Shown piece after piece: positions 14,601 to 63,496 of a stretch of DNA of 64,000 nucleotides (its first letter is position 1; each line of letters opens with the position of its first letter). Source of the stretch: a virus (lineage: Duplodnaviria; Heunggongvirae; Uroviricota; Caudoviricetes); the IMG/VR virus record IMGVR_UViG_3300021976_000008, positions 25,164 through 89,163 of that record. One strand, 5' to 3'. The position numbers and the translations under genes are program-made. A model generated the notes under the pieces. It did not search any database. It was not told where the DNA came from and worked only from the letters and a program-made list of their open reading frames with translations.

Positions 14601-14838
14601 AGACTGTCGCTGTATCTGCTACTGCGAGCACACGCTAAGCGAGCACGGCGAGGGCATCTTCGGTCGTCCATGTCTAAAGGACTGCTACTGCTCAGCGTTC
14701 GAGCGCTACCTCGAAAACGACGCTGAGCCCTGCGGGAAGCACCCCGGCTGCGGCGTCCATCTCGACGGCTGGTGCTACTGCGGTGACATCGATGCCAGCG
14801 GGCACGCCATGGTCTGCGCGGAGTGCTTCGATGGCTAA
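14593..14838 (+). CDS. Cys-rich small protein (81 aa, 12 Cys)
   Basis: MTEDCRCICYCEH...; embedded in glycosylation operon by ATGA coupling. Confidence 0.5.
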   Translation: MTEDCRCICYCEHTLSEHGEGIFGRPCLKDCYCSAFERYLENDAEPCGKHPGCGVHLDGWCYCGDIDASGHAMVCAECFDG

Positions 14839-15796: not shown

Positions 15797-16989
15797 AGCG
15801 CCATTTCTGTGCCGCCTGCGGCTACGACAACCTTGAGATGTTCCTCGACCTCGGGCTGTCGCCAATCGCCGATGCCTATACGAGCGAGCCACGCGAGGTC
15901 AGTCCTCGATTCCCGCTTCAGGTGGGGGTCTGCACGGGCTGCTGGCTCGTGCAGCTCTTGGAAGTCGTTGACCATCAGATCCTGTTTGGCACCGGCTACA
16001 GCTTCTACAGCTCTGCATCGGCGCCGCTCTCGGCTTACCACGAGGACTACGCCACCGATGTCCTGAAGGATTTCCGTCCTTTGGCAGAACGGCTGACTGT
16101 CGAGATCGGATGCAACGACGGCGACATGCTGTATCACTTCGCCGAGGCGGGATGCAGGGTACTAGGAGTCGACCCGGCCTCTGGGCCGGTGTCGGTCGCT
16201 CGCACCCACGGGCTCGATGTCCGAGAAGAGCCGTTCTGCCTGAACACCGCTAAGCAGATCGTCGGCGAGCATGGCCCGGCCGGCGTCGTCATTGCCAACC
16301 ACGTCCTCGCTCATGTCGAGTCGGTGAGCGGTGTCCTTGAGGGCATTGCCTATCTACTGGCCGACGATGGCATTGCTTTCATCGAGGTGCAGTACCTGCC
16401 GGACCTCCTCGTGAACAATGCCTTCGATCTCATCTACCACGAGCACCGCAACTTCTTCTCGCTCACGAGCCTGACAAGCGCCCTAAGCCAATGGGACCTA
16501 CACGTAGCCAAGGTCGAGCTGACCGACCGACAGGGGGGCTCTCTTCGTGTCTGCGTCACCAAGCGGCCAGGCCACAACTCCGGCAGCGATCGCATCATTG
16601 CCAAGGAAGCCTGGCTCAATCAGGTCGGGGTCTACCGCGGGTTCCAGGGGCGAATCGAGCGCATCCGAGATCGACTGCTCGACCTGATCCACGGTGAGTT
16701 CGAGGGGCAATGCGTCGCTGGCTACGGCGCCCCGGCCAAGGCGACCACGCTTCTCAACTACTGCTCGTTGACCGACAGCGACATCAGCTTCGTGATCGAC
16801 TCCACGGCCGCCAAGCAAGGCCGCTACATCCCGGGCACGGGCATCCTGATCGTCAGTCCAGAGACCCCAATTGACTCTGCCGACGCGATGCTTCTTTTGA
16901 GTTGGAATTACTCCGCGCAGATCATCCGCAACAACGCCGACTATCGAGGTAAGTGGATCATCCCGATCCCGGCACCGATGGTCCTATGA
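15793..16989 (+). CDS. NDP-hexose C-methyltransferase (TylC3-like: Zn-ribbon N-domain, class I SAM MTase, C-MTase C-domain)
   Basis: CAACGYDNLEMFLDLGLSPIADAY N-terminal zinc domain; GCNDGDML SAM motif; C-terminal GYGAPAKATTLLNYC. Confidence 0.75.
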   Translation: MKRHFCAACGYDNLEMFLDLGLSPIADAYTSEPREVSPRFPLQVGVCTGCWLVQLLEVVDHQILFGTGYSFYSSASAPLSAYHEDYATDVLKDFRPLAERLTVEIGCNDGDMLYHFAEAGCRVLGVDPASGPVSVARTHGLDVREEPFCLNTAKQIVGEHGPAGVVIANHVLAHVESVSGVLEGIAYLLADDGIAFIEVQYLPDLLVNNAFDLIYHEHRNFFSLTSLTSALSQWDLHVAKVELTDRQGGSLRVCVTKRPGHNSGSDRIIAKEAWLNQVGVYRGFQGRIERIRDRLLDLIHGEFEGQCVAGYGAPAKATTLLNYCSLTDSDISFVIDSTAAKQGRYIPGTGILIVSPETPIDSADAMLLLSWNYSAQIIRNNADYRGKWIIPIPAPMVL

Positions 16990-17981
16990 AGGTCTTCGTG
17001 TCGCCAGGTGATACCGGCCCCTGTGGCTACTACCGCCTTATCTGGCCGGCACGTGCGGCCGCTTGGCACGAGGAAGTCGAGATCGCCGACGATCGCTACA
17101 TCGGCTGGCGGATGGATGACTACATCAACTATCTGACCAAGCCTCACGCTGACGTCGTCGTTATCCAGCGGCCATCGAATCAGACCACGGTCGACGCAGT
17201 ACCCAGGCTCCGTGCTCGGGGGATCGCCGTCGTCGTGGACATGGACGACGACCTCTCCTCCGTCCACCCCGACAACGCCGCCTACTACTGGGCTCAGGAG
17301 TTCAACGACTACGCGATGAAGGCATGCGCTCAGGCCAGCCTCGTCACTGTCACAACAGAAGCACTCGCCAAACGCTACGCGCCTCACGGGCGCGTACGCA
17401 TCCTGCCCAATTGCGTGCCGGCCTCGTATCTCAAGATCCCACATCGAGATAGCGGCTTGGTTGGCTGGGGAGGCGCCCTCAGGTCACACCCGAACGATCT
17501 CGACGTGCTCGGAGACTCGATAGCGAACCTGATCGCTGCCGGCGTTGACTTCAAAGTCGTCGGTCCCAAGGGCGGCCTCGGACGGGCACTGAAGTTGGAG
17601 AAAGAACCCTTCGCTACCGACGGGGTGCCGCTGGACTATTGGCCAACCGAGTTGAGCAAGATCGGCATCGGGATCGCTCCCCTCGCACTGACGGAGTTCA
17701 ACGCAGCGAAGTCACGGCTGCGGCCGTTGGAGTACTCGGCCCTAGGTGTGCCATGGGTCGCCTCGCCGACTGCTGACTATCAGAAGTTCCATGCGCTCGG
17801 CGTTGGACGCCTCGCTAGCTCTCCTGAGGAATGGGAGTCCGAGCTATGGGGCCTTGTGATCAATCGGCACCTTCGCGACGAGCTGGCCGACGCCGGTCGA
17901 GAACTCGCTAAAGCGAACACCATCGAGGCGAACGCTTCCCAATGGATCGAGGCTTGGTCTGATGCCACGAAGAACGCATAG
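16986..17981 (+). CDS. glycosyltransferase (GT-B-like)
   Basis: ATGA-coupled last gene of the cassette; two Rossmann-like halves. Confidence 0.55.
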   Translation: MKVFVSPGDTGPCGYYRLIWPARAAAWHEEVEIADDRYIGWRMDDYINYLTKPHADVVVIQRPSNQTTVDAVPRLRARGIAVVVDMDDDLSSVHPDNAAYYWAQEFNDYAMKACAQASLVTVTTEALAKRYAPHGRVRILPNCVPASYLKIPHRDSGLVGWGGALRSHPNDLDVLGDSIANLIAAGVDFKVVGPKGGLGRALKLEKEPFATDGVPLDYWPTELSKIGIGIAPLALTEFNAAKSRLRPLEYSALGVPWVASPTADYQKFHALGVGRLASSPEEWESELWGLVINRHLRDELADAGRELAKANTIEANASQWIEAWSDATKNA

Positions 17982-18731: not shown

Positions 18732-19012
18732 TGGCAATCGAGAAGCCCGAAGATATCGACGAGGTCTTGGACGCACTAGATCGGGCGGGCGACTTGGACT
18801 CGGGCAATATCGAGGACGGCATCCTGCAACTGCACGAGGTATTGCTCAACAGCGGTGCCAACCCCGAGGACCCGACGAACTACCGAGCCATCATCGCCGT
18901 AGGAGCGGTCATCGCCAGCTTGCCCCCGGTGTTGTGGGTACCCATCACGGAAGAGCTGATTCGGGTAAGCATGCGAGCCCTGCGGGACCTGAGGAACCGT
19001 GGCGGGTCCTAG
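18731..19012 (+). CDS. hypothetical protein (93 aa)
   Basis: ATG coupled to upstream stop. Confidence 0.5.
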   Translation: MAIEKPEDIDEVLDALDRAGDLDSGNIEDGILQLHEVLLNSGANPEDPTNYRAIIAVGAVIASLPPVLWVPITEELIRVSMRALRDLRNRGGS

Positions 19013-19235
19013 AACCCGCTTCCGCTACCGGCGGGAGCGGGCGGACAACAAGGAGAACGACACCACCGACCGCAAGGCCTTCGAGCGCTGGCTCAGAGAG
19101 GCCGAGCCAGGCGATAGGTTCTTCGTCGCCGATTGCCGCTGGGTGCAATGCGAGCAGGACGGCACGGTCATCTCCGGCGGCGACGAGATCCCCCACGTGC
19201 GGTGGGTGACCGAAGCCGATGCAGTGGAGAACTAG
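18999..19235 (+). CDS. hypothetical protein (78 aa)
   Basis: GTG start overlapping upstream gene end. Confidence 0.4.
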   Translation: MAGPRTRFRYRRERADNKENDTTDRKAFERWLREAEPGDRFFVADCRWVQCEQDGTVISGGDEIPHVRWVTEADAVEN

Positions 19236-26033: not shown

Positions 26034-27578
26034 CTAAGCCGCCGCTTCCCCGGTACCCGCTGGCGCATTGTCCATCGCGATGGGTGTAAGGCAGCGAGTC
26101 CCATCGCGCCCGGGGAGGTCTCGGGGGACGCTGGGGTCGTTGCGAGTCCAGATGCGGAACTCCCCGCCACGCTGGACGGCGATGACCTCGAAGGCATCGG
26201 CTAGGAACGCTCGCCTCTCTTCGATACCGAGCGTCTCCCAGATCTCGCTGAGGTTCACGGGCAGAGCAACGCCGAGCACGGCGTTGCGAGCTTCAGCGAC
26301 AGCCTCGCGAGCTTCCATTACCCGAGCCAGACGAGCCTGTTGCCCGTCCTCGACCCAGGACTTGCCCAGAACCCGCCCCATTTCGATCGTGCTGTCCGAG
26401 ACGAGGAACTCCCTCAGCTCTGCCTCTGCGGTCTCCTGCTCCAACAGCGCGGCTTCTAGGGCGTCTGTGGACACCTCGCCACGAGCGAAGCGATCGCAGC
26501 ACGGACCGAGGAACTTGGTCCTGAAGACCTCCTCGACCGCTGCCTCGATGACGTCAGCTCGGATACGGGCCGGCGCCGGGCACTTGCCGAACGTGTGGTT
26601 GCGGCGGCAGTCGTAGTAGCGGTAGTGGCCGTAGGCGTTCTTGGTGCCGACGCCGCGCATGGTGACACCGCAGCCGGTGCAGCGGATGATGCTGGTGAGC
26701 TTGTACGTGGCCTCGTCGTTCCGCAGGACGTTCCGGTTGTGAGCGTTGGCTCGCTGCCACAGATCGAGCGACACGATGCCCTTGTGGGCGTTGAGGTTCA
26801 CGAACTCACCCGAGGTGATCTCGCCGAGGTAGACGCGAGACTGGACGAGGCGGCGCACACTGTTGATCCCCCAGAGGCCGCCTTCTCTAGTCCGGATGCC
26901 CCCTTCGTTGAGCCAGTCGGCGATCTTGGCCCAGGCCATTGGCCCGGTAGTGCCGTCGGGTCGGGGAGCTTCGGCTCGCCGCTCGAACATGCCGACGACC
27001 CAGTCCTCCTCGTCGGGGACGGACACCAAGCGACGCGTTCCGATGAGCTTGCCGTTCGGACCGGGCACGCCGTCCTTGCGGTAGCCGTAGGGCTCGGCTG
27101 TGTGGACACCGTTGGCGACGCGGCGCCGGGTGACGTCCTCCCAGCCCTTGGTGACGGACTTGAGGTACCACTCAGCCATCCACAGCAGCACGGCCAGGAT
27201 CAACTGCGACAACTCGCTACCGTCGCCGTAGATGCCGTCCTTGACGGCGATGAACACCTTGCCGTTGTTCTCCAACTCGCGCACGGCCAGGAGACCACCG
27301 ATCATGTCGCGAGCGAGGCGATCGACCTTCATGACGATGATCCCGTCGGCCTCGTCAGCAAGAACCCCAGCGACGGCTTTCTGAAGCTCCTTGCGCTCGA
27401 CCGTCTTGCCCGAGACCGAGTCGGACTCATCGAACCAGTGCACGATGCGGTGGCCGTTGGCCTTGGCCCAGGCCTCGCAGGAATCGACCTGCTCGAAGGG
27501 CGAGTGGTACGAACCGTTGTCCGAATCCGAGCGGTTGTTGTCTCGGGAGACACGCTTGATGCCGAAGAGGTCAGCCAT
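26034..27578 (-). CDS. int: large serine recombinase (phage integrase, resolvase catalytic domain + recombinase domain + zinc ribbon/coiled coil)
   Basis: N-terminal resolvase motifs with catalytic Ser (VSRDNNRSDS...), RLARD, long C-terminal recombinase domain with Cys cluster CTGCGV..C. Confidence 0.9.
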   Translation of the reverse strand: MADLFGIKRVSRDNNRSDSDNGSYHSPFEQVDSCEAWAKANGHRIVHWFDESDSVSGKTVERKELQKAVAGVLADEADGIIVMKVDRLARDMIGGLLAVRELENNGKVFIAVKDGIYGDGSELSQLILAVLLWMAEWYLKSVTKGWEDVTRRRVANGVHTAEPYGYRKDGVPGPNGKLIGTRRLVSVPDEEDWVVGMFERRAEAPRPDGTTGPMAWAKIADWLNEGGIRTREGGLWGINSVRRLVQSRVYLGEITSGEFVNLNAHKGIVSLDLWQRANAHNRNVLRNDEATYKLTSIIRCTGCGVTMRGVGTKNAYGHYRYYDCRRNHTFGKCPAPARIRADVIEAAVEEVFRTKFLGPCCDRFARGEVSTDALEAALLEQETAEAELREFLVSDSTIEMGRVLGKSWVEDGQQARLARVMEAREAVAEARNAVLGVALPVNLSEIWETLGIEERRAFLADAFEVIAVQRGGEFRIWTRNDPSVPRDLPGRDGTRCLTPIAMDNAPAGTGEAAA

Positions 27579-27808
27579 CAGCGGACTTCCATGAACTCGG
27601 CAATGCCTTCGACCGCCTGGGACTTGGTCTTCCAGTAGTGCCCGCATTCGCATGACACCGAGGCGAACCCGCCAGCTTCAGCGAGGGCCTCGCCCATGAT
27701 CATCTCGCCGGTCTCCTCATCGATCGAGACGTCCTGCACGAGGACGCCTCGACGGATTACGCGGAAGGTGAGTGAGCCGCAGCTGGTCGGGCAGTAGAGA
27801 CGGCGCAT
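27578..27808 (-). CDS. zinc-ribbon protein (76 aa) translationally coupled to integrase
   Basis: CPTSC...CECGHYW; TGATG overlap with int start. Confidence 0.5.
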   Translation of the reverse strand: MRRLYCPTSCGSLTFRVIRRGVLVQDVSIDEETGEMIMGEALAEAGGFASVSCECGHYWKTKSQAVEGIAEFMEVR

Positions 27809-32721: not shown

Positions 32722-32795
32722 TAGCGATGACGGGACTTGAACCCGCGACATCACGCGCCAGAGGCGTGCGCTCATACCAACTGAGCTACATCACA
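32722..32795 (-). tRNA. tRNA with anticodon CUG (Gln) on minus strand
   Basis: Hand-folded cloverleaf: D-arm GCTC/GAGC, anticodon stem CACGC/GCGTG loop CTCTGGC, T-arm GCGGG-TTCAAGT-CCCGT, 7-bp acceptor with one T-T mismatch at 1:72; no CCA encoded. Confidence 0.65.
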
Positions 32796-39172: not shown

Positions 39173-39556
39173 CTATCCGGTCCACTCCTTGACGACAAAC
39201 GCCCGGTAGAGTTCGCGGAAGGCGCCCTTCTGAGCGAGGTTCAACTCGCGCCGGGACATGACGAACGTCTCGAAGTCCGTGTCATCCTCGACGGCGTGTA
39301 GCCGCTTGAAGATGGCCCCTCTCGGCAGCTCGAAGACATCTTCGAGCGCCATGACGTTGTGGATGTGCAGGCCCCCGAAGTGACGGCCGCCGTTCTCCCA
39401 CGTAGAGACGCCCGACTGGCGCATCCCGAGCCTCTCGGCGAGCTGCGCCGCGGTCCAGTCGCGACGCTCGCGCTCCGCCTTGATGAGCGCGCCCAACGCC
39501 GCGGAAAGCTCCAAGGCGTGAGCCTCACGCCGTGCCGCCACGTCTTCACCAGGCAT
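39173..39556 (-). CDS. XRE-family HTH protein with C-terminal domain; candidate immunity repressor (cI-like)
   Basis: WTAAQLAERLGMRQSGVSTWENG HTH; divergent from a promoter/operator region. Confidence 0.5.
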   Translation of the reverse strand: MPGEDVAARREAHALELSAALGALIKAERERRDWTAAQLAERLGMRQSGVSTWENGGRHFGGLHIHNVMALEDVFELPRGAIFKRLHAVEDDTDFETFVMSRRELNLAQKGAFRELYRAFVVKEWTG

Positions 39557-39681
39557 TTTTAGCCCCACTCCTCTTATCTGCATATCGAGGGTCCACAGTA
39601 CGTTATCGCACCGCGACTTGCAACGAGTCCTATGTCACGAATCCTACCCGTGGTAGGGGTCGCGGACTGTGGTCGAGTTGT

Positions 39682-48072: not shown

Positions 48073-48372
48073 ATGGCTGTTGATTACGATGTTGATGCTG
48101 CGAGGATCACGCTTTGGCGCGATCATCACCGCGCCCGGTCTCGCGTGCATAAGAAACGAGCAACAATGATGAACGCCGAATCAACACGCTGGAAGGAGGA
48201 CCAAAGAGAGATTGAACACAGGTTGGACCAACTACATGAACGCGCAGGTAACGAATGTTCGGCGCTCAAGTCAACACTCAAAGAGCTTGACTCGTTGTAT
48301 ATTGAATATTGGCGTCTATTCTATGAGGGTTCCCAAAAGTTCCCAGACGGGAAGTGGAATGACACCCCGTGA
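48073..48372 (+). CDS. hypothetical protein (99 aa) in a low-GC patch
   Basis: Local GC about 48-50% against 66% background. Confidence 0.45.
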   Translation: MAVDYDVDAARITLWRDHHRARSRVHKKRATMMNAESTRWKEDQREIEHRLDQLHERAGNECSALKSTLKELDSLYIEYWRLFYEGSQKFPDGKWNDTP

Positions 48373-50116
48373 GCTTGCACAAGACCTGATGGCTCGTGGC
48401 GCAGCGGTGCTACCGCTGCGCTCCGACAAGAGCCCGGTGACACACCTCGTGCATGATGGATTCCATGACGCTTCGAGCGATACCCGGGATCTGTGGTGGT
48501 TCGAGCACGAGGACACCGAGATGGTCGGGCTCGTCCCTGGCAGCTTGGGGCTCATTGTCCTCGACGTCGACACCAAGGGAGAGAGGAGTGGGATCGATGA
48601 ATTGAACGAGATCGCTCCGGGCTGGGGTCACAACGACGCCTGGGGGGCGGTAGTCGGAACGCCATCTTACGGTCGGCCGTATGGACGGCCGACCGGCTAT
48701 CACGCCTATCTTGCCAAGCCGATCACAGCCGAACACATCGGCAACCATGATCTATGCCCCGGCGTGAACGTGCGCAGCGACGCCGGCTACGTCGTCGCTC
48801 CCGGCAACATGGCCTATGAGTTCACCCATGGCGACCTCACGGGGTGTCTCCTCGCCCCTGACTGGGTCATGGAGCGGCTGCGGGCAGCAGCGAAGGCCGA
48901 GGCTGAGGTGTCGCTCGACGACCCGTATGACATCCCTGACGCCCGCATGGAGGCAGTGCACGAGTGGCACCCGAAGGTGACCGCGGCATTCAGCAGCTTC
49001 GACCCCCAGGGGGACCGTCACACGTCCATGACTGTCGCTGTAGCCGCCTTGTGCAACCACGAGTTGCTCGGCTATCCCGGGGCGACGCGAGCACTGTTCA
49101 TCCTCGAAGAGAACTTCACGAAGGCAGTAAGGGATCGCTCCGACGAATGGGCAGCGAGGCGGGAGTTCCGGCGAGCCCTCGATGGGGGTCGGGCTCGGGT
49201 GCGGAGCACCGTAAGCATCGGGCTCGAAGAGCGGGACAAGGATCGTCAGTTCGTGGAGCAGATCATCCTCGAACACGGCGGTAGCCAGGAGGACGTCGAG
49301 AAGGTGCTGAGTCAGCACCCGTCGCATCTGCGCATGTTCACGATGCGAGAGCTGATGGCGTCGGACCTCACGTTGAACTGGCTGGTGCGCAACGTCATGG
49401 TCGTGCCGACCTATGGCCAGATAGCCGGCGAGAAGAAGACGCTCAAGACCTATTTGTCGCAGTACCTGGCGGTGGCGGTGGCGACCGGCGAGCCCTTCCT
49501 GCGTCAATTCCCGGTGGAGAAGCAGGGCAACGTGGTCATGTTCGTCGGCGAGGGCGGCAAGATCCCCTGGACGAGGCGCATGCCTCGCATCGCCGAGTCC
49601 GTCGGCATCCGTGACATCGGTGATGCGCCGATACACGCGGTGTTCCAGACAGCACCGCTGCTATCGCCGGCCTTCAAGGGGACGGTGGAGACGGCGATAG
49701 AGCAGCTCGACCCGGTGCTCACGATCATCGACCCGTTCTACGCCTATCACGGGTCCGAGACGAACTCGGCGAACATACATGAGGAGGGTGCCCTGCTGAC
49801 CGCGGTAGCCGCTCCGTTCATCGAGCATGGAAGTAATTTACTGATAGTAAATCACTTCAAGAAGGGCTCGGAGTCGAGGGGGATCAACCGCATCACGATG
49901 GCGGGCTCGGGTGAGTGGGTCGACTCCTGGATCTTCACCGAGGAGAGGGAGTCGGCTGACCTCAACAGTGGCGACTTCTACATCGCTGCGGAGTTCGGCT
50001 CCCGCCAGTGGGGCGGGAGCCGCTGGGAGATCGACTTCAACATCGGGGTGCAGAACGCCATGGGGGAAGAGCCAGACTCTCCGATCCACTTCGAGCTACG
50101 GAGGAGCTACTCGTGA
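48359..50116 (+). CDS. bifunctional DNA primase/polymerase (Prim-Pol N-domain) with C-terminal RecA/RepA-like NTPase region
   Basis: Prim-Pol-like N-terminus (AAVLPLRSDKSP...LIVLDVDTK...YHAYL...GYVVAPG); C-terminal P-loop-like segment. Confidence 0.65.
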   Translation: MTPRELAQDLMARGAAVLPLRSDKSPVTHLVHDGFHDASSDTRDLWWFEHEDTEMVGLVPGSLGLIVLDVDTKGERSGIDELNEIAPGWGHNDAWGAVVGTPSYGRPYGRPTGYHAYLAKPITAEHIGNHDLCPGVNVRSDAGYVVAPGNMAYEFTHGDLTGCLLAPDWVMERLRAAAKAEAEVSLDDPYDIPDARMEAVHEWHPKVTAAFSSFDPQGDRHTSMTVAVAALCNHELLGYPGATRALFILEENFTKAVRDRSDEWAARREFRRALDGGRARVRSTVSIGLEERDKDRQFVEQIILEHGGSQEDVEKVLSQHPSHLRMFTMRELMASDLTLNWLVRNVMVVPTYGQIAGEKKTLKTYLSQYLAVAVATGEPFLRQFPVEKQGNVVMFVGEGGKIPWTRRMPRIAESVGIRDIGDAPIHAVFQTAPLLSPAFKGTVETAIEQLDPVLTIIDPFYAYHGSETNSANIHEEGALLTAVAAPFIEHGSNLLIVNHFKKGSESRGINRITMAGSGEWVDSWIFTEERESADLNSGDFYIAAEFGSRQWGGSRWEIDFNIGVQNAMGEEPDSPIHFELRRSYS

Positions 50117-53569: not shown

Positions 53570-53919
53570 TGGCGCGACCCAAGTCCATTGATGTCCGTCG
53601 ACTAGCGGTCGAGCTGCACCAGAAGCGTGGCCATCCTGCTGAGTACGACGGTCCATGTTGGGGTCCGACGCCGGCTGATTTTGCTGAGGCTCGACGGCAC
53701 GTGGAGGAAGACCCCCAAGCCACCTCCGAGGTCCCCTCGAAGGGCCATACGGGTTCGCCACATGAACCCCTATGGGGGGTCGCTGGGATCTCGGGATTTC
53801 GTGGGGCCGGATTTGAAAAGACCGTATGGGGGGTCGGCTACGCCCCAGGAAAGGGTATGGGGGTGTTTTCAAATTCTCGGATTTCTCTGGGACGGATTTC
53901 GGATTTGTCATGCACATAG
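53569..53919 (+). CDS. hypothetical protein; the 3' half runs through a DNA repeat region so the true stop is uncertain
   Basis: N-terminal 60 aa protein-like; C-terminal part encoded by TATGGGGGGTCG / GGATTTC repeats. Confidence 0.3.
   Translation: MARPKSIDVRRLAVELHQKRGHPAEYDGPCWGPTPADFAEARRHVEEDPQATSEVPSKGHTGSPHEPLWGVAGISGFRGAGFEKTVWGVGYAPGKGMGVFSNSRISLGRISDLSCT
53750..53910. repeat. short direct repeats (TATGGGGGGTCG x2-3, GGATTTC x4) upstream of the SLOG gene
   Basis: cccctatggggggtcgctgggatctcgggatttcgtggggccggatttgaaaagaccgtatggggggtcgg... Confidence 0.5.
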
Positions 53920-54278
53920 TGACGACCGGACCGCGCGACTGTCGCAACAGCGAGGTGATTCGGTTGCTAATGGTCCACCTGCGCGAGGCGATCGGGCCTG
54001 ACCTCCTAGTCATCCAGGGTGGGGCTCGTGGCTCTGATCGACACGTCAAGGAGGCATGTAGAGCCCTTGGCGTGGTATGTGAGACGGAGTGGGCCAACTG
54101 GACTGGCCCCTGCGATATCGAGGGAGGCTGGTGCCGCCCCTTCCATCGACGCCGGCGCGCTGATGGCACCGAATACTGCCCTGCAGCTGGCCCCCGACGC
54201 AACGCCATGATGCTCTACAAGTGGGAGCCGGCGCTTGTCATCGCCCTCTATCGGAGACCAGGGGCACCAAGGACATGA
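53910..54278 (+). CDS. DUF2493/YspA-type SLOG domain protein
   Basis: IVTTGPRDC...LLVIQGGARGSDRHVKEACRALG pattern typical of DprA/LOG-like SLOG proteins common in actinophages. Confidence 0.55.
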   Translation: MHIVTTGPRDCRNSEVIRLLMVHLREAIGPDLLVIQGGARGSDRHVKEACRALGVVCETEWANWTGPCDIEGGWCRPFHRRRRADGTEYCPAAGPRRNAMMLYKWEPALVIALYRRPGAPRT

Positions 54279-54388: not shown

Positions 54389-54409
54389 ACTTTGCCTAGC
54401 CTCTCTCCC

Positions 54410-54520
54410 CTAGGTATTTTTTTTTTCTATTATGTATTATATATATATATATATATAAAGTAGGGACGATATCGGCCCTATATCGGCCTCGATCCTCGGT
54501 TTTTTTTTTCGGGGTACAGG
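54410..54520. repeat. AT-rich tract: T10, (AT)9 microsatellite, ATATCGGCC direct repeat, T10
   Basis: ttttttttttctattatgtattatatatatatatatataaagtagggacgatatcggccctatatcggcc...tttttttttt. Confidence 0.8.
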
Positions 54521-54527
54521 TGTTCGT

Positions 54528-54640
54528 ACGAACAGACGTTGGGGGTACGGGCGTTCGCCCCGAACAGGTGCGCGGGGAACGGGCGTTCGCAGGCGAACAC
54601 GTGCGCGCACGTACAGACGTTCGTACCGATCGGCCGATAG
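54528..54640. repeat. cluster of four palindromes with GTTCG...CGAAC arms (GTTCGTACGAAC, GTTCGCCCCGAAC, GTTCGCAGGCGAAC, GTTCGTACCGATCGG)
   Basis: Read directly from sequence. Confidence 0.7.
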
Positions 54641-54799
54641 CGCTCTAGGCGCGCACTCCGCCGCTCTACGTGGGAGACCCGGAAATCGGCGCCGATAGAT
54701 GCCCTGGTCAAGGCTCTTGACAAGTCGCGATTCGTCCCAGATCTCCCGCGAGGGTCGCCCATGGGTGCTAGGTGCTGCCAGCACTTCAAATGGAGTAGG

Positions 54800-54860
54800 C
54801 GACCCTCTAGACCCCAATGGGAGCACGTCAGTCGGTAGACCCCAATGGGTGGACTAGACC
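54800..54860. repeat. direct repeat TAGACCCCAATGGG x2 plus CTAGACC motifs
   Basis: ctctagaccccaatgggagcacgtcagtcggtagaccccaatgggtggactagacc. Confidence 0.6.
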
Positions 54861-55396
54861 GGGGAGACTGTAACGGGATCGCAACACGTTCTAGACCTCC
54901 GGCACTAGAGCAGGGACTACGCTGGGGGTTGATCCCAGGAGAGACCGAGCACCCCGCGAGGGACGGTCCCCAGCTAGAGCACCTAGCGAGCGATAGGGCA
55001 GGGATTCACCCCTAGGGGATGCGCTCCGATCTCGGGAGCGTCCCCCTATCTCTTGGTGGGTGACGGCCAGTGCCAGGCCAGGGATATATGGCAGGCCAGA
55101 CTTAGCCACCGTTGACGGTTCGGCAGTCGTTCCGCGTGAGGGAAGCAATCCGCGGCAGTAGACGACACTTGACCTAGGGGTGAAGGGTCTCCGTAGCGCA
55201 CGGGGGTTTACGGCTCAGCTATCGGGCTAGTTCCCCGGTAGCGAGCTAGTGGACACTGCCTAGGCCTTCCCGGTCTGCCGCTAGTAGCTATACGGACCGC
55301 GCTAGCGAGACCTCGGAGACCTAATGGTCTCTAACGTTGCTCGCTTTAACGACTCGACATCGTCGCGGTTCACTGACCTAGAAGAGGGATGAGGCT

Positions 55397-55606
55397 ATGC
55401 CTAGCAACGAAATCGTTACTGAGGATGGTGTCACGGTTCACAAGGGTGACCGCGTGTTCAACTACTACGATCGCGTCTACTGCGTGATCACGGAAGATCC
55501 CGACTCTCAGGGATGGTTCAACACAACCGAGGACGATGGCAGGCGGACGCCACTGAACGGGGCTCGTATCTGTTCCGTTGCTTTCGCAGAAAGGAAGGGT
55601 TGGTAA
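55397..55606 (+). CDS. hypothetical protein (69 aa), first gene of the compositionally distinct right-hand segment
   Basis: GAGGGATGAGG RBS; lower-GC codon usage. Confidence 0.5.
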   Translation: MPSNEIVTEDGVTVHKGDRVFNYYDRVYCVITEDPDSQGWFNTTEDDGRRTPLNGARICSVAFAERKGW

Positions 55607-56872: not shown

Positions 56873-57120
56873 TGACGACACTTCTATTCGCACTCGCCTA
56901 CTACGCGTCGCGACCATTCAACCGCAAGCGCTCCGACCCCTACCGGTCAACGCGAATCGGTCCTAACGGAAACGTCATCGTCGTCTATCGCTATCCCGAC
57001 CCAGGACCGATCCCCGATCCTGGCCAGGGGGACTAGCACCTACCGAGCGATACCGGTCTAGGCGGAATCGGTATTAGCTCGGATGGCTACTAGGCCAGTA
57101 GAGCAACAAAGGATGGGAAA

Positions 57121-57261: not shown

Positions 57262-57476
57262 GGTGGACGCACTCGACTACTACGACGCTTGGTTTCGTGG
57301 CGTCAATGACGCTAGTCGCCAAGCGATGGTCTACGTTCCCCCGCCGAACGCACAAGAGCGTAAGGCCTATAGCGAGGGATGGCACGCCTACAGCGCTTGC
57401 TAGTCGCTAGATCTAGGCGCACTCTCGCGAGTGCGCCTACACCTAGTTATTAGGGCAAAGGATGGGAACACAAAGG

Positions 57477-57641
57477 ATGTTGGAAACCGAGAGAGTGCGT
57501 TCGCTCATGGATGGGGTCGAGCGCGTGATCAGTGAGTATCAGAACAAGGACGCTCCGACCCCTACCGATAGCGCTATCGCGTTTGGTCGCGTTCTCGGAG
57601 TGATCGACTACTACCGCGAGCGATTCGGCGTGACGTCATGA
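57477..57641 (+). CDS. small protein (54 aa)
   Basis: Preceded by CAAAGGATGGGAACACAAAGGATG leader. Confidence 0.4.
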   Translation: MLETERVRSLMDGVERVISEYQNKDAPTPTDSAIAFGRVLGVIDYYRERFGVTS

Positions 57642-57841
57642 GTCGTCTCATAGAGGACTACCTAGACGCCGCGGAGCGCATGCGTTGGACACCAGCGACG
57701 TTCCTAAAGCGCAAGGGTCATGATTTCGTGCGACATCACGCCGCGCTAATCTGTGCGCTAGATGAGCGCGTGTCCGCCGGACGTGTCGTCGCGGTGTCAT
57801 CGAAGAATGGTGGCATTGCCTACCTAGAGGTAATCGAATGA
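57638..57841 (+). CDS. hypothetical protein (67 aa)
   Basis: ATGA coupling. Confidence 0.45.
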   Translation: MSRLIEDYLDAAERMRWTPATFLKRKGHDFVRHHAALICALDERVSAGRVVAVSSKNGGIAYLEVIE

Positions 57842-58002
57842 TGAGGCATGATGTTGACATTACCTACGGTCCGCATCAATGCCCTGACTGCAACTACGTA
57901 ATGATCCCTCCCGAACCTTTGGGGACTCCGGGCGATGATTCGTGGTACTGCGATCGTTGCGGACAATCCTGGTCGTTAGACCTAACCACCCGCGTACTGT
58001 GA
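57838..58002 (+). CDS. zinc-ribbon protein (54 aa)
   Basis: CPDCNY...CDRCG. Confidence 0.4.
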   Translation: MMRHDVDITYGPHQCPDCNYVMIPPEPLGTPGDDSWYCDRCGQSWSLDLTTRVL

Positions 58003-58016
58003 ATAGAGGTAATCAA

Positions 58017-58226
58017 ATGAGCGACTATATCAAAGACATCGCTGGTGAGACCGTTGCGACGGTCGTTGGCGACATGGGCGCGGTGCGCTGGTTTCTCGAT
58101 AACGGTCGGAGAGGTGATCGCCTAGCCAGTACCAACGAGCTAATGAGCGATCTCACCTCCGATCTCATGCCAGACCTGGCAGTCACCTTTGACGGTGACG
58201 GACAAGTGAAAGGTGAAAGGAAATGA
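58017..58226 (+). CDS. hypothetical protein (69 aa)
   Basis: AGAGGTAATCAA RBS then ATG. Confidence 0.45.
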   Translation: MSDYIKDIAGETVATVVGDMGAVRWFLDNGRRGDRLASTNELMSDLTSDLMPDLAVTFDGDGQVKGERK

Positions 58227-58552
58227 GCAATAGCGCTCCGATCTTTCTCCGGGCGGATAATTCGCCATGGGAAGAGCAGGGTGACGCGATCCGCGCCGCG
58301 CTCTTTGGCGAGCTGGTCAAGGTTGGCCACGATGTCGTCAAGCACTATCACTCCGACATCTACCACGATGCGACATGGGTTCAGGAGTACGTGGACGGAC
58401 CCATGACGTTCTACTACGCGGTACGTGATACCGGTACGTCTATCGGTACCGATCTCGCGCTGGTCGACCGTATAGCAGCAGCAGCGACTTACCGCGTTGA
58501 TCTCTCCGAGAACCGTGGCCGTTGGACCGTGACTATCCGAGAGGTGAATTGA
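58223..58552 (+). CDS. hypothetical protein (109 aa)
   Basis: ATGA coupling. Confidence 0.45.
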   Translation: MSNSAPIFLRADNSPWEEQGDAIRAALFGELVKVGHDVVKHYHSDIYHDATWVQEYVDGPMTFYYAVRDTGTSIGTDLALVDRIAAAATYRVDLSENRGRWTVTIREVN

Positions 58553-59328
58553 TGAGTAAGACCCTTACGTCTGACGAAATGGTCGTCATACTCCGCGAGG
58601 ACGCGGGCGACCATTTCTCGTTCCTGACATCAACGCGAGACCGGGTAAACGAATGGCTGGCGCGAGGTGATGGGATCGCGGTCTATCAGAACGAGGACTT
58701 AGGTTCTCGTAATGTTGGGGCGCGTCGATTCGTCTCTTTCGGCTCCCACGATGCGATGATCGAAACCGATGATCCCACGCGACAAATGCCAGGTGCTAGG
58801 GGTGAGATCACGTGGCGTTATCAACTAGAGGCTACGTATCGCGGCGCTCCGTTGGTGTTCGTTGTCGACAACCCTCGTGATCTCCGCCAAACGAGCAAGC
58901 GTTCCGATCTCCGCGACGTGGTCGATTTGTGGTGGTCCGCGACACTGGACAATCACGAGCCTGCGCGTTCGTGGGGATCGGGATACGCGCAAGAGTATTC
59001 GACCGATCATGGCACTCGCTCCATTGTCCTCTGGGATAGCGAGGAATTGCGTGATGCTGACAAGTGCGTATTCCTCATCGATGATGGGGATACGGTGCGT
59101 CCGTACTACGTATCTGGGCATCCTGCCGATAACGAGAGTCTTTGGCTTAAGCCCTTCCCGACAACGATTCACGCATGCGATGAGTGCGGAATCGAGTTCA
59201 CGGAACGCGAAGAGGCTTGCGACTCTTGCTACTCGCGTAAGCAGCGCAATGGATTCCGTCCGATCGAATTCGGCACGTGGTCGCTCGGACCGCGTCGCGC
59301 CTATCACTTGAAAGTGAGGAGAGGTTAG
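58552..59328 (+). CDS. hypothetical protein (258 aa) with C-terminal CxxC..CxxC
   Basis: Long protein-like ORF. Confidence 0.5.
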   Translation: MSKTLTSDEMVVILREDAGDHFSFLTSTRDRVNEWLARGDGIAVYQNEDLGSRNVGARRFVSFGSHDAMIETDDPTRQMPGARGEITWRYQLEATYRGAPLVFVVDNPRDLRQTSKRSDLRDVVDLWWSATLDNHEPARSWGSGYAQEYSTDHGTRSIVLWDSEELRDADKCVFLIDDGDTVRPYYVSGHPADNESLWLKPFPTTIHACDECGIEFTEREEACDSCYSRKQRNGFRPIEFGTWSLGPRRAYHLKVRRG

Positions 59329-59331
59329 GCA

Positions 59332-59544
59332 ATGGTGACACTTACGGGTTTCGAGCATGATATTGAGCGCGCTCACTATTATGCACTAGGCGCGATGCAT
59401 CGCGTTTATATCGCTGGTGTCGCGTGGGATGATCTCTACGCGGTTGCTACCGGTTTCACTTACTACTACACGCGGCACGTAGGCAAGGGTCTCGGCCACG
59501 CGTGGGAGGAGTACGCGAAGGCGCTAAGCGAGTTGAGTTCGTAG
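59332..59544 (+). CDS. hypothetical protein (70 aa)
   Basis: GAGGAGAGG RBS. Confidence 0.45.
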   Translation: MVTLTGFEHDIERAHYYALGAMHRVYIAGVAWDDLYAVATGFTYYYTRHVGKGLGHAWEEYAKALSELSS

Positions 59545-59612
59545 CTCTACTACGCGTAGCGAGCCTTAAGGGTTCGGTACGCGTCATGGCACTACGAAAG
59601 GGAAGGAAGGCT

Positions 59613-60050
59613 ATGCGAGCAATTGAGTTTGTGCGTAAGTATCGGATCACCGGTGAGATCATCGATGGTCCGAATACGTCAAGCGATGGTGGTTGGGAGC
59701 ACTACGCAATGCAAGTGCGTCTATCCCTCACAACTGGCGTGGGCGAGATTCGACACTTTGAAATGTCGTTCATGGCAGGCGTTGCGTGGAGCATGCCGGA
59801 GTTCACCGGTGATAGCGACACTCTTCCTGCTAAGTCGGTTGGGGAGATCATCGGCTCGTTGGCTGACAATCTCCGTAGCCGCGATAAGTCATGGGGCGAG
59901 TACGCGAGCGACTTTCATCCCGGTGACCCCAATGACTTGACGGTGCGCGAGCACAACACGTGGGAAGAAGTGATCGCGCAGGGTCGCAAGGTCGCCGATT
60001 GGCTTTACAGTCAAGCCATGCTTGACGACATGGAAAGTGTGGTTGAGTGA
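59613..60050 (+). CDS. hypothetical protein (145 aa)
   Basis: GAAAGGGAAGGAAGG RBS then ATG. Confidence 0.5.
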   Translation: MRAIEFVRKYRITGEIIDGPNTSSDGGWEHYAMQVRLSLTTGVGEIRHFEMSFMAGVAWSMPEFTGDSDTLPAKSVGEIIGSLADNLRSRDKSWGEYASDFHPGDPNDLTVREHNTWEEVIAQGRKVADWLYSQAMLDDMESVVE

Positions 60051-61240
60051 TCGAACTATTCCTCTTAGGCGCCGCGGCTGGCGCGGTGGTCAAGGCGCGG
60101 CAAGCGCGCCCGGCCAGGGTCGGCCCTAGACGTCGTAGGGGGCGAGCGTGGGAGCTACCCGGCCTAGATGTACTGGCAAGCGCTCCGCGGCCCTTAGGGG
60201 GCGATCTAGGGGGCTATGGCGAGACCCTGATCTCCGGACTCTCTGCCCGTGGCCTAGAGGTCCGCTTAGCTGGGACCGTCACCGGTCCCAGCGTCGTCCG
60301 GTACGAACTAGACCTAGGCGACGCTCGACTCTCACGGTTGACGGGGCTTACGAGGGATATTGGCTACCTATTGGGTGCTTCTAACCCTCGCATCCTGACT
60401 CCCGTAGACGGTCGGAGCGTCGTAGGTATCGAAGTGCCGCGTAGGGAGCGTGAGCTAGTCACGCTTGCGTCCGTCCTCGGACGCAAGCGTCTAGGGGTCC
60501 TAGACGTAGCCATAGGGCTAACGACTGACGCCATGCCAGTAATGGCAAACCTCGCGCAGCTACACCACGTGCTAGTAGCGGGAGCTACTGGCGCGGGCAA
60601 GTCGACATTCCTCAATTCGCTTATCGTAAGTCTGCTAGTAGGTGCTAGCCCTAAGGACTTGCAGCTACTGCTAATCGACCCTAAGCGAGTTGAGCTATCA
60701 CAGTACGCAGGCTTACCTCATTTGTGGCGACCGATAGCCAAGGATGGCGGTGACGCCATAATCGCATTGGTGGCAGTCGTAGAGGAAATGAACCGACGCT
60801 ATGCGTTCATGGAGCGCAAGGGTTTCCGGAACATCGCGGAGGCTAGGGCGAAAGGCGTTGACCTTCCTTACTTGGTTGTCATCATCGATGAGGTAGCAGA
60901 GTTGATGATGGTCGCTAGGGAGCACGTAGAGCCTGCCATAGCGGGTATAGCTCGCTTAGGACGGGGCGCGGGAATTCACCTCGTGCCAGCTACGCAGAGA
61001 CCAGACGTGAAAGTCATTACCGGAGAGATCAAAGCAAACATCCCGGCTCGTGTTGCCTTTGCAGTCGCTAGCAACACTGATAGCAGGGTGATACTTGACG
61101 CCAACGGAGCGGAGAATCTCACCGGTAAAGGTGATCTCCTCTTTAGTACCGGCGGACATGAGTTGACACGAGCGCAAGGCGCGTACGTGACAGACGACGA
61201 AATTAGGAAGGTAGTGCAATGGTGGATAAAGCAAAGGTGA
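60047..61240 (+). CDS. FtsK/SpoIIIE-family DNA translocase (TraB-like), 397 aa
   Basis: Walker A VLVAGATGAGKSTFLNSL, Walker B VVIIDEVAEL, N-terminal TM helix. Confidence 0.8.
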   Translation: MIELFLLGAAAGAVVKARQARPARVGPRRRRGRAWELPGLDVLASAPRPLGGDLGGYGETLISGLSARGLEVRLAGTVTGPSVVRYELDLGDARLSRLTGLTRDIGYLLGASNPRILTPVDGRSVVGIEVPRRERELVTLASVLGRKRLGVLDVAIGLTTDAMPVMANLAQLHHVLVAGATGAGKSTFLNSLIVSLLVGASPKDLQLLLIDPKRVELSQYAGLPHLWRPIAKDGGDAIIALVAVVEEMNRRYAFMERKGFRNIAEARAKGVDLPYLVVIIDEVAELMMVAREHVEPAIAGIARLGRGAGIHLVPATQRPDVKVITGEIKANIPARVAFAVASNTDSRVILDANGAENLTGKGDLLFSTGGHELTRAQGAYVTDDEIRKVVQWWIKQR

Positions 61241-61620
61241 CGACGACGGTAAAGATTGACGTGGAGATCACGTCAGTCCGCTACGTCAAGGCGGTTGACC
61301 CTGACCCTGACCTTTCGTGGTTAGAGCAGGAGTGCTTTAACGACGCGACAGATACCGAACCGGCTGATTACGGTAAGCGTCGTATTGAGGCTTACCGTCA
61401 AGGGGAATGGTGGGCGGTTGGGATCTACGCGGAAGCGTTGACTCGCGACGAGACCGTCATTGCTCGGAGCGGAGGAGTGTGGGGAATCGAAAGCGATTCC
61501 GATGACGCTCATTTCAACGAGGTTGCTAGTGACGAACGTTCCGAGCTTTCCTCATCACTAGGGCTCGGCGTTGACGGACTCGATAGCGTTCGGACCGATT
61601 GGGTTGAGTTAGATGTCTAA
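61219..61620 (+). CDS. hypothetical acidic protein (133 aa)
   Basis: Overlaps translocase 3' end. Confidence 0.45.
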   Translation: MVDKAKVTTTVKIDVEITSVRYVKAVDPDPDLSWLEQECFNDATDTEPADYGKRRIEAYRQGEWWAVGIYAEALTRDETVIARSGGVWGIESDSDDAHFNEVASDERSELSSSLGLGVDGLDSVRTDWVELDV

Positions 61621-61795
61621 GGACGAACGTATTCCGCTTCCCGATAACACGTTCTATCGTCCGATGCGAAGGGGTCATCTTATCCTTAAGGGGCATGAGC
61701 TTGACGCTTACTACGGTCCGTTCGACGAGACGACCGGTATCGGTACCGGCATTATCCGCGTGTGTTGCGGAGAGGACAAGTGCGATGACGACTAA
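61613..61795 (+). CDS. hypothetical protein (60 aa)
   Basis: Coupled ORF. Confidence 0.4.
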   Translation: MSKDERIPLPDNTFYRPMRRGHLILKGHELDAYYGPFDETTGIGTGIIRVCCGEDKCDDD

Positions 61796-62399
61796 CGCAT
61801 TTCGCGTGTGGTCAGAACGCTTGGATACTGGCACTTTGACCAAATCGCAAGTGCAGCAATTCGCGGGTGCTATCAGTACCGTTGCGCTAGGTCGAATGCA
61901 ACGCGGCAGGCACTCCGCCTTGACTCATGAGGAGTGCGTCTCTCTGTATAGGCGCATTCGTTCGCAGTCCGTTCGCTTGACCGATGATCACACGCGGCAA
62001 GGTCACGATTGGCTAAGTCGCTATGGCGCAAAGGTGCTCGCTATGGATAGCGAGACTCATTCCGCCATGATGCTCGCATTCGACCATTTCTCATGGGACG
62101 GTCAAATCGTAGATGGGTCGGTATTGCCTATCTGGACTGTTCACCTCACGACTGGCGCGGTTCTGCAATACTTCAATGCGTCATGGGTCAGCAAGGCTTA
62201 CGACAACGAGCGTGACTCTGCTTACTGGTGGGGTATTCGTGATAGCGAGCCTATCGAACGGTCGGATTACGACTATCTCGATTCGTTTGCTGACGCGGAA
62301 CGCGTGTCTGTCTTTGCAGACAACGAGATCGACGAATGGAATTCGTTCGTTGATGGCATCCGCGAGCGTACTAAGAGCTTGCGAGGGAAGGTGCGCTAG
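61785..62399 (+). CDS. hypothetical protein (204 aa)
   Basis: GGAGAGGACAAG RBS then ATG. Confidence 0.5.
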   Translation: MTTNAFRVWSERLDTGTLTKSQVQQFAGAISTVALGRMQRGRHSALTHEECVSLYRRIRSQSVRLTDDHTRQGHDWLSRYGAKVLAMDSETHSAMMLAFDHFSWDGQIVDGSVLPIWTVHLTTGAVLQYFNASWVSKAYDNERDSAYWWGIRDSEPIERSDYDYLDSFADAERVSVFADNEIDEWNSFVDGIRERTKSLRGKVR

Positions 62400-62918
62400 A
62401 TGGCACTCATACTGAAATCCGAATGGTGCAAGCACTGCCGCGAGCGAATCACGCTTAGGCGTTATGCCGCGGCTCGACCGTTACCCGGATTCCCCGCGGC
62501 GGATAGCGTTGATCTCTGGGTCAACGGTAACGGCGCGTTCCCTGGTGATCAGTCATTGTGCGAGCATCACGACATAGGCGACGACATCGGTTCCTATGGG
62601 CATCACGAGCCGGCCGGTAACTCTCTGGTCGTTAGTGTCTGGTCTGCCTATGGGCATCGGTTCCTTTGGGAAGATGGCAGAAAGGCCTGTTTCGCATGCG
62701 GAGCGGTTTATGATCTAGTAGCGGACTCCGATGACCCAACCCGCGGCGAGTATGTCAATCGACGCGGTGATGCTGCTATGTCTTGCGCTGACTTGCGAGA
62801 TCTCGTTCATGGCATAGAGCGCAATTGCGAAGTTGACAATGGGAAACCCTGCAATGGCGGTAGCGAGCCGTGCGAGCACACTGACCACGATTGCAACTGC
62901 CTACAGTGCCAAACCTGA
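62400..62918 (+). CDS. Cys/His-rich protein (172 aa)
   Basis: Coupled ORF; multiple CxxC/H pairs. Confidence 0.45.
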   Translation: MALILKSEWCKHCRERITLRRYAAARPLPGFPAADSVDLWVNGNGAFPGDQSLCEHHDIGDDIGSYGHHEPAGNSLVVSVWSAYGHRFLWEDGRKACFACGAVYDLVADSDDPTRGEYVNRRGDAAMSCADLRDLVHGIERNCEVDNGKPCNGGSEPCEHTDHDCNCLQCQT

Positions 62919-62992
62919 CCCTCTAGTCCCTGATAGTCTCCGGTACCGAGCGCTACCGTAAAGCGCTCATCAACAAAGGATGGGAATCCAAC

Positions 62993-63496
62993 ATGCGTAA
63001 GTTCATGATCATGGCCGCACTCGCGGCAACCGTGGTGATGCTGGGAGCGTGCGATGCCGCGCCCGAGCGCGAAGGTCCGACCGCGGAATCTATCGAATCC
63101 GCCCTAGAGAACTACGATCGCCGCACGTCTGACACGACCACCCCCGACGCGGATGGTCCCGCGGTCGACCGCGAGGACACCATGACGTCAACCGAGCGTG
63201 AGCGTTTCGGTTCGTGGGATGGCACGGGCGACACGCCCTATGGCGACGACTCTGACAACGATGGTCGGTTCTCGGACGTCACGTGCGGAGGGTGGCACGG
63301 TAGCGAGCACAAGATGACGTGCACGTATGGCGATGGCACCATTGCTGCTATCGGCATCGACTACGTCAACGCTGGTTGGGTGTGGGGCATCACGCCTATC
63401 TCCCAGCCTGGCCAATGTCCCAGCGAGTCAATGTGTCTGGTCACGTGGGACCATGCCACGACGAGCCCCGTGGTCGTGCCAGTCCCAGGAGGCTAG
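62993..63496 (+). CDS. lipoprotein (167 aa; signal peptide, lipobox LGAC)
   Basis: MRKFMIMAALAATVVMLGAC; CAAAGGATGGGAATCCAAC leader. Confidence 0.6.
   Translation: MRKFMIMAALAATVVMLGACDAAPEREGPTAESIESALENYDRRTSDTTTPDADGPAVDREDTMTSTERERFGSWDGTGDTPYGDDSDNDGRFSDVTCGGWHGSEHKMTCTYGDGTIAAIGIDYVNAGWVWGITPISQPGQCPSESMCLVTWDHATTSPVVVPVPGG

Follow-up and report, generated by a model that had tools for sequence, protein, structure and literature searches.

What is a gene-free kilobase of DNA doing in a phage genome, between the replication genes and a long rightward series of small genes? The question is raised by positions 54389-55396 (hereafter the gap) of a 64,000-nucleotide (nt) stretch of a tailed-phage genome (IMG/VR record IMGVR_UViG_3300021976_000008, positions 25,164 to 89,163), which is referred to here as the window. 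The initial annotation of this window, made from the letters alone, had described the gap as an AT-rich region full of palindromes and repeats at a sharp compositional boundary, and had proposed a genome terminus, a replication origin or cis-acting transfer locus, or the junction with an acquired module. The analysis reported here favours, with moderate confidence, a different answer, namely that the gap is a conserved two-part intergenic control region, with a DNA platform on the left and, to its right, a promoter and a long, folded, non-coding leader on the + strand. The gap lacks coding capacity, is conserved in a syntenic position, carries covarying structure on the + strand and occurs as a single copy per genome.

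Related contigs were obtained via primase-helicase homologues. Four relatives were usable, with primase identities of 61-74%: L003, L119, L122/L123 (two contigs of one phage) and L124; L125, L126 and L127 are more distant. A single related contig came out of protein-guided scans across IMG/VR, JGI metagenomes and GTDB genomes, and the YAcAr neighbour of the gap, used as query, returned three proteins only. In the four closest relatives (five contigs), a gene-free gap of 0.9-1 kb lies directly 3' of the YAcAr/SLOG gene, and the shorter gap of L127 (0.66 kb) has the same RNA motif, described below. Between the window and L003, parts of the gap reach 79-86% nucleotide identity, as against 67-69% for the flanking genes, and two thirds of the gap (54695-55375) are kept more strongly than those genes. 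The genes to the left of the gap are conserved among the relatives; those to its right are mosaic and mostly unshared.

The description of the gap as non-coding held up, since the + strand contains no open reading frame of at least 60 amino acids between 54389 and 55396 and no frame is kept in the relatives. Similarity between the window and its relatives is spread over several frames, on both strands, with stops. A hidden protein gene was considered and rejected: the - strand frames of 103-129 amino acids are artefacts of high GC content and show no conservation specific to a frame. One assembly annotates a - strand "gene", which is spurious as well, because no reading frame is conserved.

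The right part of the gap contains two structured RNA domains ahead of the first downstream gene:

55065-55208, + strand: RNA domain D, with three covarying helices (H1, H2 and H3)
55065-55074 with 55090-55097, + strand: helix H1
55117-55131 with 55161-55174, + strand: helix H2, enclosing a hairpin of variable sequence (55132-55155) and a conserved CAGUAG (55156-55161)
55186-55193 with 55201-55208, + strand: helix H3, just after a conserved GAAGGGU
55292-55375, + strand: three-way-junction RNA motif, ending 21 nt before the ATG at 55397
55294-55301 with 55364-55371, + strand: helix P1 of the junction
55304-55309 with 55340-55345, + strand: base of helix P2
55349-55352 with 55360-55363, + strand: helix P3
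55397-55606, + strand: first downstream gene, a 69-amino-acid orphan; the genes after the leader differ between relatives

The last base of CAGUAG (55161) also closes the inner pair of H2. In domain D (alignment A4), 93.5% of the cells are paired and both sides change in 10 of the 29 pairs, with slid controls at 30-49%; 31 cells are G-U and none is A-C. The three-way junction (alignment A5) has 95.3% of its cells paired and compensatory double changes in 9 of 18 pairs, with slid controls at 31-50%, and all six homologues reach the same shape when folded singly. With its covariance model (R1), each genome yields exactly one copy, scoring 59-82 bits, and no other match in 0.9 Mb exceeds 18.5 bits. 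Because the two domains together hold 38 G-U cells versus a single A-C cell, the fold is assigned to the + strand, as are all neighbouring genes.

Comparison of the window and six relatives with the 4,227 models of Rfam gave nothing at the gathering score and no family match even at E = 5; the best score at E <= 5, for frnS, was 18 bits versus a cut-off of 60. ARAGORN reported neither a transfer-messenger RNA (tmRNA) nor a transfer RNA (tRNA) at the gap element. The comparison with the relatives shows purifying selection on an RNA fold that belongs to no described family and lies beside an origin-like DNA element. In scans with plain DNA patterns, the TAGACCCCAATGGG 14-mer gave chance matches only, two block-specific patterns had no match beyond the L003 contig, and the three-way-junction pattern gave 70 matches, none of which (0/70) passed the covariance model. 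Matches to a domain-D pattern in unrelated coding genes, including those of five Arthrobacter genomes, were set aside after nhmmer confirmed that they are non-homologous.

In L127, a degenerate tRNA-like element (12311-12373) directly follows the three-way junction and has a perfect T-arm (GCAGGTTCGAATCCTGC) and a CCA end. Its score on the Rfam tRNA model, 19.6 bits, is below threshold; the element has no counterpart in the window and may represent an attP core or a tRNA-like RNA terminus. This tRNA-like 3' half had suggested a tmRNA, tRNA or Y-RNA-like identity for the gap element, which was rejected in view of the sub-threshold score and the absence from the window.

Upstream of these domains, the right part of the gap opens with the following features:

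54695-54811, + strand: conserved block C, with CCCTGGTCAAG-GCT-CTTGACA, a -35-like TTGACA at 54717-54722 and CATGGGT at 54760
54808-54849, + strand: TAGACCCCAATGGG pair, two exact copies 28 nt apart

Block C shares 72-79% identity with its counterparts in L003, L119 and L122 and can still be recognised in L124, L126 and L127. Its TTGACA is invariant in seven sequences, and the distance from TTGACA to CATGGGT is exactly 43 nt in all five sequences compared (the window and its four closest relatives). A separate TATAAA/TATAAT lies at the 3' end of the AT tract described below. Block C is tentatively read as a promoter together with the first part of the leader, and this call is kept tentative because there is no -10 hexamer at the usual distance. 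In L126, the TTGACA box lies about 150 nt upstream of a gene. The same contig has, near its end, a 0.65-kb gene-free stretch with an array of tandem repeats of about 60 bp (GCACACTGCACAGTAGGTG...; 18780-19140) and a second copy of the GGGGCGATCTAGGGGGCAA motif. The TAGACCCCAATGGG pair had been noted in the initial annotation as a repeat and is indeed present at 54808 and 54836, with no other copies in the window; at its site the relatives carry a CTAG-N5-CAATG-N-GGG-like motif. Downstream of block C, conserved single-stranded motifs alternate with helices whose sequence varies from phage to phage, and no terminator-like hairpin with a U-run was found between the three-way junction and the start codon.

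From these observations the following mechanism is proposed. The gap, which has the replication module on one side and a long series of variable small genes running rightward on the other, would act through two parts. The left part (54389-54640), which combines an AT tract, phased short repeats and iterons, would be a docking platform for a sequence-specific protein and would serve either as a replication origin or in transcriptional control. The right part, from about 54695 to 55375, would be transcribed on the + strand, most likely starting at the TTGACA-box promoter at 54717 or, alternatively, at a -10-only promoter at the end of the AT tract. The transcript would be a non-coding leader of about 650 nt, built as a series of conserved helices and ending in the three-way junction. 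Because the leader persists in phages that have different genes behind it, it would act in cis on the whole transcript or on the polymerase. Its candidate roles are anti-termination, stabilisation or processing of the transcript, and formation of an abundant stable leader RNA, as at Pleft of phages L5 and D29; a gene-specific translational switch is unlikely. The promoter, the transcription and the function of the leader are predictions.

Several points weigh against this proposal. As regards the promoter, there is no TANNNT -10 hexamer 16-18 nt past TTGACA (AGATCT, AGCTGC and AGTGCC are aligned there), and a consensus promoter scan finds none. In the middle of the leader (54740-55057), the alignments are too poor to show covariation; RNAalifold gave a positive covariation term for 54736-55075, from equally poor alignments. 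The structure of domain D was obtained with RNAalifold on the + strand, which favours G-U pairs, and only six distinct, related sequences carry the motif, so that the covariation controls are underpowered. Moreover, G-T pairs are tolerated in single-stranded DNA hairpins too, and the folds could act at the DNA level.

Some known systems resemble the proposed leader in part. GOLLD, ROOL and the raiA class are likewise several hundred nt long, rich in covarying helices, carried by phages and of unknown function, whereas the gap element has no Rfam match, abuts its downstream gene without a terminator and is represented by six sequences only. The put element of HK022 comprises about 70 nt with two stem-loops, and the EAR element of Bacillus about 120 nt. 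Both are structured RNAs encoded immediately 3' of a promoter, where a very long co-directional unit begins, and are kept independently of the genes that follow; unlike them, the gap leader has about 650 nt and at least seven helices, and it shares no sequence or Rfam similarity with them. The nearest parallel in layout comes from L5, D29 and StarStuff, in which a non-coding leader of about 500 bp behind the early lytic promoter Pleft gives rise to abundant stable RNAs of unknown function (PMC5712189). In both cases a temperate actinobacteriophage has a promoter, then 500-650 bp or so without a conserved open reading frame, then a long operon of small genes. However, the two leaders have no sequence similarity (blastn, 50,697 phage records), and the L5 leader lies at the right end of the genome next to cos, whereas that of the gap is internal and follows the replication genes. 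For L5 it is expression that has been shown, for the gap leader it is conserved secondary structure.

The left part of the gap differs in kind from the right part and contains the following elements:

54394-54426, + strand: weak terminator-like feature, a 7-bp hairpin (GCCTAGC...CCTAGGT) followed by T10 (54417-54426), directly after the upstream stop codon
54413-54472, unstranded: AT-rich tract, with (TA)10 at 54438-54457 and TATAAA at 54453-54458
54469-54488, unstranded: ATATCGGCC direct repeat pair, spaced by 11 bp (one helical turn), consensus C(C)C(G/T)ATATCG
54500-54509, + strand: second T10 run, 83 bp after the first, not kept in relatives
54511-54622, unstranded: iteron block, three 31-32-bp direct repeats of GGGG(T/A)AC(A/G)GG-GTTCG-N2-4-CGAAC
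54522-54533, 54553-54565 and 54585-54598: iteron palindromes, with a fourth GTTCG at 54618

The AT-rich tract stands out in a 60-bp scan that took in 74 kb of the genome: its GC content is 0.17, about 7 standard deviations below the mean (0.618, standard deviation 0.06), and the next-lowest 60-bp segment has 0.33. An AT-rich (TA)n tract opens the gap at the same place in L003, L119, L122 and L124. The tract is a candidate DNA-unwinding element and could alternatively be the -10/UP region of a rightward promoter. The C(C)C(G/T)ATATCG pair recurs at a spacing of 11-12 bp in L003 (16227/16238) and L119 (16706/16718), and L122 and L124 have single degenerate copies. For the GTTCG-N2-4-CGAAC palindromes, four or more matches window-wide appeared in 0 of 100 shuffles. 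Nowhere else in the genome are the GTTCG/CGAAC pentamers packed as densely as here, with seven in 150 bp, when the background density is 3.2 per kb. The iteron block is 86% identical in L119, where 10 pentamers fall within 150 bp, while L003, L122 and L124 have other short repeats in its place. Judging from these closest relatives, the iterons are lineage-specific and the AT tract is universal. Folded as RNA, the iteron block is no better than shuffled sequence (z = -0.53), and for this reason the left module is considered a DNA-level platform for protein binding. The hairpin at 54394-54426 (-7.6 kcal/mol, z = +0.29) is also no better than shuffles and is not kept in relatives. Two further identities were considered and rejected: operators of the CI repressor, since the divergent region of the repressor itself has a different inverted repeat, and a Type III toxin-antitoxin system, in which tandem ToxI-like repeats of about 36 nt directly precede a ToxN/AbiQ-type toxin gene, since the three 31-32-nt repeats of the gap precede 0.8 kb of non-coding sequence and then orphans of 69-70 amino acids without a family match.

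All the motifs listed in the initial annotation were recovered here, among them the two T10 runs (54417-54426 and 54500-54509), the AT microsatellite, which is (TA)10 at 54438-54457, and the direct repeat, with ATATCGGCC at 54469 and again at 54480. The count of four GTTCG...CGAAC palindromes had to be lowered, as three are perfect GTTCG-N2-4-CGAAC (54522, 54553 and 54585) and the fourth GTTCG, at 54618, lacks a proper partner. The claims on composition needed larger corrections. The genome, put at about 66% GC, measures 0.616, and the gap is AT-rich only over some 110 bp (about 54400-54510), its overall GC content being 0.588. There is no sharp compositional boundary at the gap, given that 55.4-57.4 kb still has 0.603 GC; the drop in GC reported for the downstream side is real at 57.4-63 kb (0.561), but it does not follow the gap directly, and 63-71 kb regains 0.638. 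Third codon positions (GC3) are less GC-rich in the same interval, at 0.57-0.66 for most genes at 57.4-63 kb versus 0.64-0.86 for most upstream genes. CTAG sites are as numerous as described, with 18 in the 1008-bp gap (17.9/kb) and 5.5-6/kb at 55.4-63 kb versus 1.2-1.6/kb upstream of the gap. The gap is thus 12-fold denser in CTAG than the upstream DNA, although the local trinucleotide content alone predicts 12.2 sites, or two thirds of them.

The interval 57400-63000 (0.561 GC versus 0.616 for the genome; 5.5 CTAG/kb) is a low-GC island that holds an FtsK/SpoIIIE-like gene and orphan genes, and it is probably an acquired cassette. The leader motif that had been reported downstream, CAAAGGATGGGAA, is exact at 57107-57119, 57456-57468 and 62974-62986, in or beside this island and just 5' of small genes; it has 6 matches at up to two mismatches, a number reached in 0 of 100 shuffles, and may serve these genes in common as a ribosome-binding leader or be a regulatory word specific to the module. 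An intergenic element at 57394-57452 consists of GCTAGTCGCTAGATCTA followed by a hairpin with an 11-bp stem (TAGGCGCACTC-TCGC-GAGTGCGCCTA). It is 87-89% identical to two copies in L003 (17351-17411 and 17803-17857), far above nearby genes, and could be a terminator, a processing site or an operator.

Among the alternatives to a control region with a leader, a replication origin is the serious contender for the left part, although it is held here as doubtful. The AT tract would unwind, the ATATCGGCC pair and the GTTCG/CGAAC iterons would bind an initiator, and the right part would activate or prime replication, by analogy with the transcription-activated lambda origin or the ColE1 RNA II pre-primer. 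The origin suggested in the initial annotation stays plausible for the left 250 bp only. As at iteron origins, an AT-rich element adjoins three or more repeated sites in helical phase: the most AT-rich 60 bp of the genome are directly flanked by phased repeats, and the pentamer iterons occur in both orientations in three units 31-32 bp apart. The replication module (Prim-Pol/AAA_25 at 48359-50116, and exonucleases) also ends at the gap, and lineage-specific iterons beside a universal AT tract are the pattern expected of initiator/iteron co-evolution. In SaPI elements, origins have penta- or hexanucleotide iterons around an AT-rich centre, beside pri-rep, and these iterons occur in both orientations and differ between related elements (PMC9371898). 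The gap shares with SaPI, lambda and P4 ori-crr origins an AT-rich melting region beside short repeated initiator sites, downstream of primase/helicase genes. In contrast to them, only one flank of its AT tract bears iterons, and the Prim-Pol/helicase gene is 4.3 kb away rather than abutting. No winged-helix or helix-turn-helix domain was recognised in that protein or in the neighbouring replication proteins, so a cognate initiator was not found. Nor does any protein track the iteron type: in no Prim-Pol segment and no other gene does the window resemble L119, with which it shares iterons, more closely than L003, whose repeats differ. GC skew follows gene orientation and does not turn at the gap, and the AT tract lies upstream of the candidate promoter, unlike that of T7/T4/ColE1-type transcript-primed origins, where it lies downstream. 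A bolder proposal, considered rather unlikely, is that the right two thirds of the gap represent a new class of large (about 650 nt) multi-helix phage RNA machine. Its core would be GUAAG, CAUAGGCAGGGA, CAGUAG, GAAGGGU and the terminal three-way junction, and it would modify RNA polymerase or prime or activate an origin, for example through processive anti-termination over the rightward transcription unit of about 60 kb or at the adjacent AT-rich/iteron origin. It is unlikely, too, that the right part is the source of at least one independent non-coding RNA of a new large class, acting in trans, instead of a cis leader. The alternation of single-stranded GUAAG, CAUAGGCAGGGA, CAGUAG and GAAGGGU with variable helices is the pattern of ribonucleoprotein or ribozyme RNAs, the downstream gene is not conserved and Rfam has no match; on the other hand, the 21 nt between the three-way junction and the start codon hold no hairpin/U-run terminator, and the element is always on the same strand as, and directly ahead of, a co-directional gene block.

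The remaining explanations fare worse. That a phage assembled as a circle has its physical ends (cos or pac) in the gap is very improbable. Large repeat-rich non-coding regions often flank cos sites, a circular assembly (89,276 = 89,135 + 141) hides the true ends, and the L125 contig ends about 350 bp into its gap. Nevertheless, five related contigs and both 89-kb assemblies of this genome cross the gap, the small terminase gene lies 15 kb downstream with about 30 genes between, and what is conserved is RNA helices and iterons, with no terminase-proximal motif; the terminus reading of the initial annotation is not supported on these grounds. A 611-bp "gap" upstream of the terminase was also examined as a cos candidate and looks coding. 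Still less credible is a passive scar, left by the junction with a horizontally acquired low-GC module or by decayed genes. The genes on the right are mosaic and mostly unshared with the relatives, which lends partial support to the junction proposed earlier, and a lower-GC, CTAG-richer island exists at 57.4-63 kb. This island, however, starts only 2 kb beyond the right edge of the gap and stops at 63 kb, and the gap surpasses its flanking genes in conservation and carries compensatory base changes; the covariation largely refutes the scar. Least probable of all is that the phage FtsK/TraB-like translocase is loaded at the repeats, as at a clt-like or KOPS-like site. An FtsK/SpoIIIE-family ATPase is encoded 4.6 kb downstream and the iterons open with the G-rich GGGG(T/A)AC(A/G)GG, but the TraB 8-mer GACCCGGA is not enriched (3 copies in the window versus 4.5 expected, one of them in the gap), and the TraB match of the translocase is weak (64 bits versus a cut-off of 800). 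Furthermore, the ATPase can be aligned with E. coli FtsK only to about residue 1261, where the gamma domain would start, and is therefore taken to lack this sequence-reading domain. L003, L122 and L124 encode or adjoin FtsK-like genes but do not have these iterons. The cis-acting transfer locus of the initial annotation is not supported for the same reasons.

The control region with its leader, which remains the preferred interpretation, belongs to a temperate siphophage-like phage whose lineage has no cultured member. Searches with the gap (megablast, blastn) and with the tail and primase proteins (tblastn) found no match in 50,697 phage and 72,556 plasmid records. The DUF397, DUF5753 and DUF732 genes in L124 point to an actinobacterial host. 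Two independent public assemblies of 89 kb, ENA ERZ27267804 k141_1022293 and Logan SRR7026477_4311, close as a circle and are identical in sequence to the window. The circle measures 89,135 bp, a size derived by placing one gene per side of the ENA contig; the contig itself has 89,276 bp, that is, 89,135 plus a 141-base overlap, and breaks at about window position 12465. A single direction of transcription covers about 77 kb of the 89,135-bp genome, whose main landmarks are:

1.5-6.5 kb: tail genes
6981: amidase lysin
26034-27653, - strand: serine integrase
32722-32795, - strand: a single tRNA-Gln (CUG) gene
39173-39583, - strand: CI-like HTH_31/HTH_3 repressor
48359-50116: Prim-Pol/AAA_25 primase-helicase, in a rightward block with two exonucleases, an SPFH protein, an RNA-ligase-like protein and YAcAr/SLOG
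53910-54278: YAcAr/SLOG protein
60047-61240: FtsK/SpoIIIE-like ATPase, 4.6 kb downstream of the gap
About 15 kb downstream of the gap (L001 20292-20756): small terminase (Terminase_4)

Some of these landmarks call for additional remarks. Between the lysis genes and the integrase, at about 11500-17900 (L259 14523-20849), lies a sugar-modification cluster with two GT2 glycosyltransferases, a 2OG-Fe(II) oxygenase, an NAD-dependent epimerase, a methyltransferase and a GT1-like protein. The tRNA-Gln (CUG) gene adjoins a 366-amino-acid protein without an assigned function (phrog_5931). The region of the CI-like repressor (39173-39669) includes an 86-bp divergent stretch with a CCACAGT/ACTGTGG inverted repeat and is likely the immunity switch. 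In the Prim-Pol/AAA_25 protein, a 40-residue segment (alignment positions 81-120) is only about 20% identical in every relative, whereas the remainder is 50-100% identical in the closest ones; by this comparison, the segment is a hypervariable insert. The only relatives of the FtsK-like protein, all below 46% identity, are found in Cluster J mycobacteriophages and Bacillus phages, the nearest isolates being Cluster J mycobacteriophages at about 45%.

Long non-coding stretches of phage genomes are usually put down to genome ends or to scars of recombination. With the covariance model and the fixed anchors obtained here, the element can be recognised in new metagenomes. If the leader is only a stable leader RNA like that of L5 and D29, it would be a second, structurally defined example of a little-understood phenomenon. 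If its role is to control elongation or replication, actinobacteriophage biology would gain a regulatory device based on RNA, and the expression of about 60 kb of co-directional genes would be explained. Should the reading as a large RNA machine prove true, the whole gap would be a coupled replication-transcription switch without a described counterpart in actinobacteriophages.

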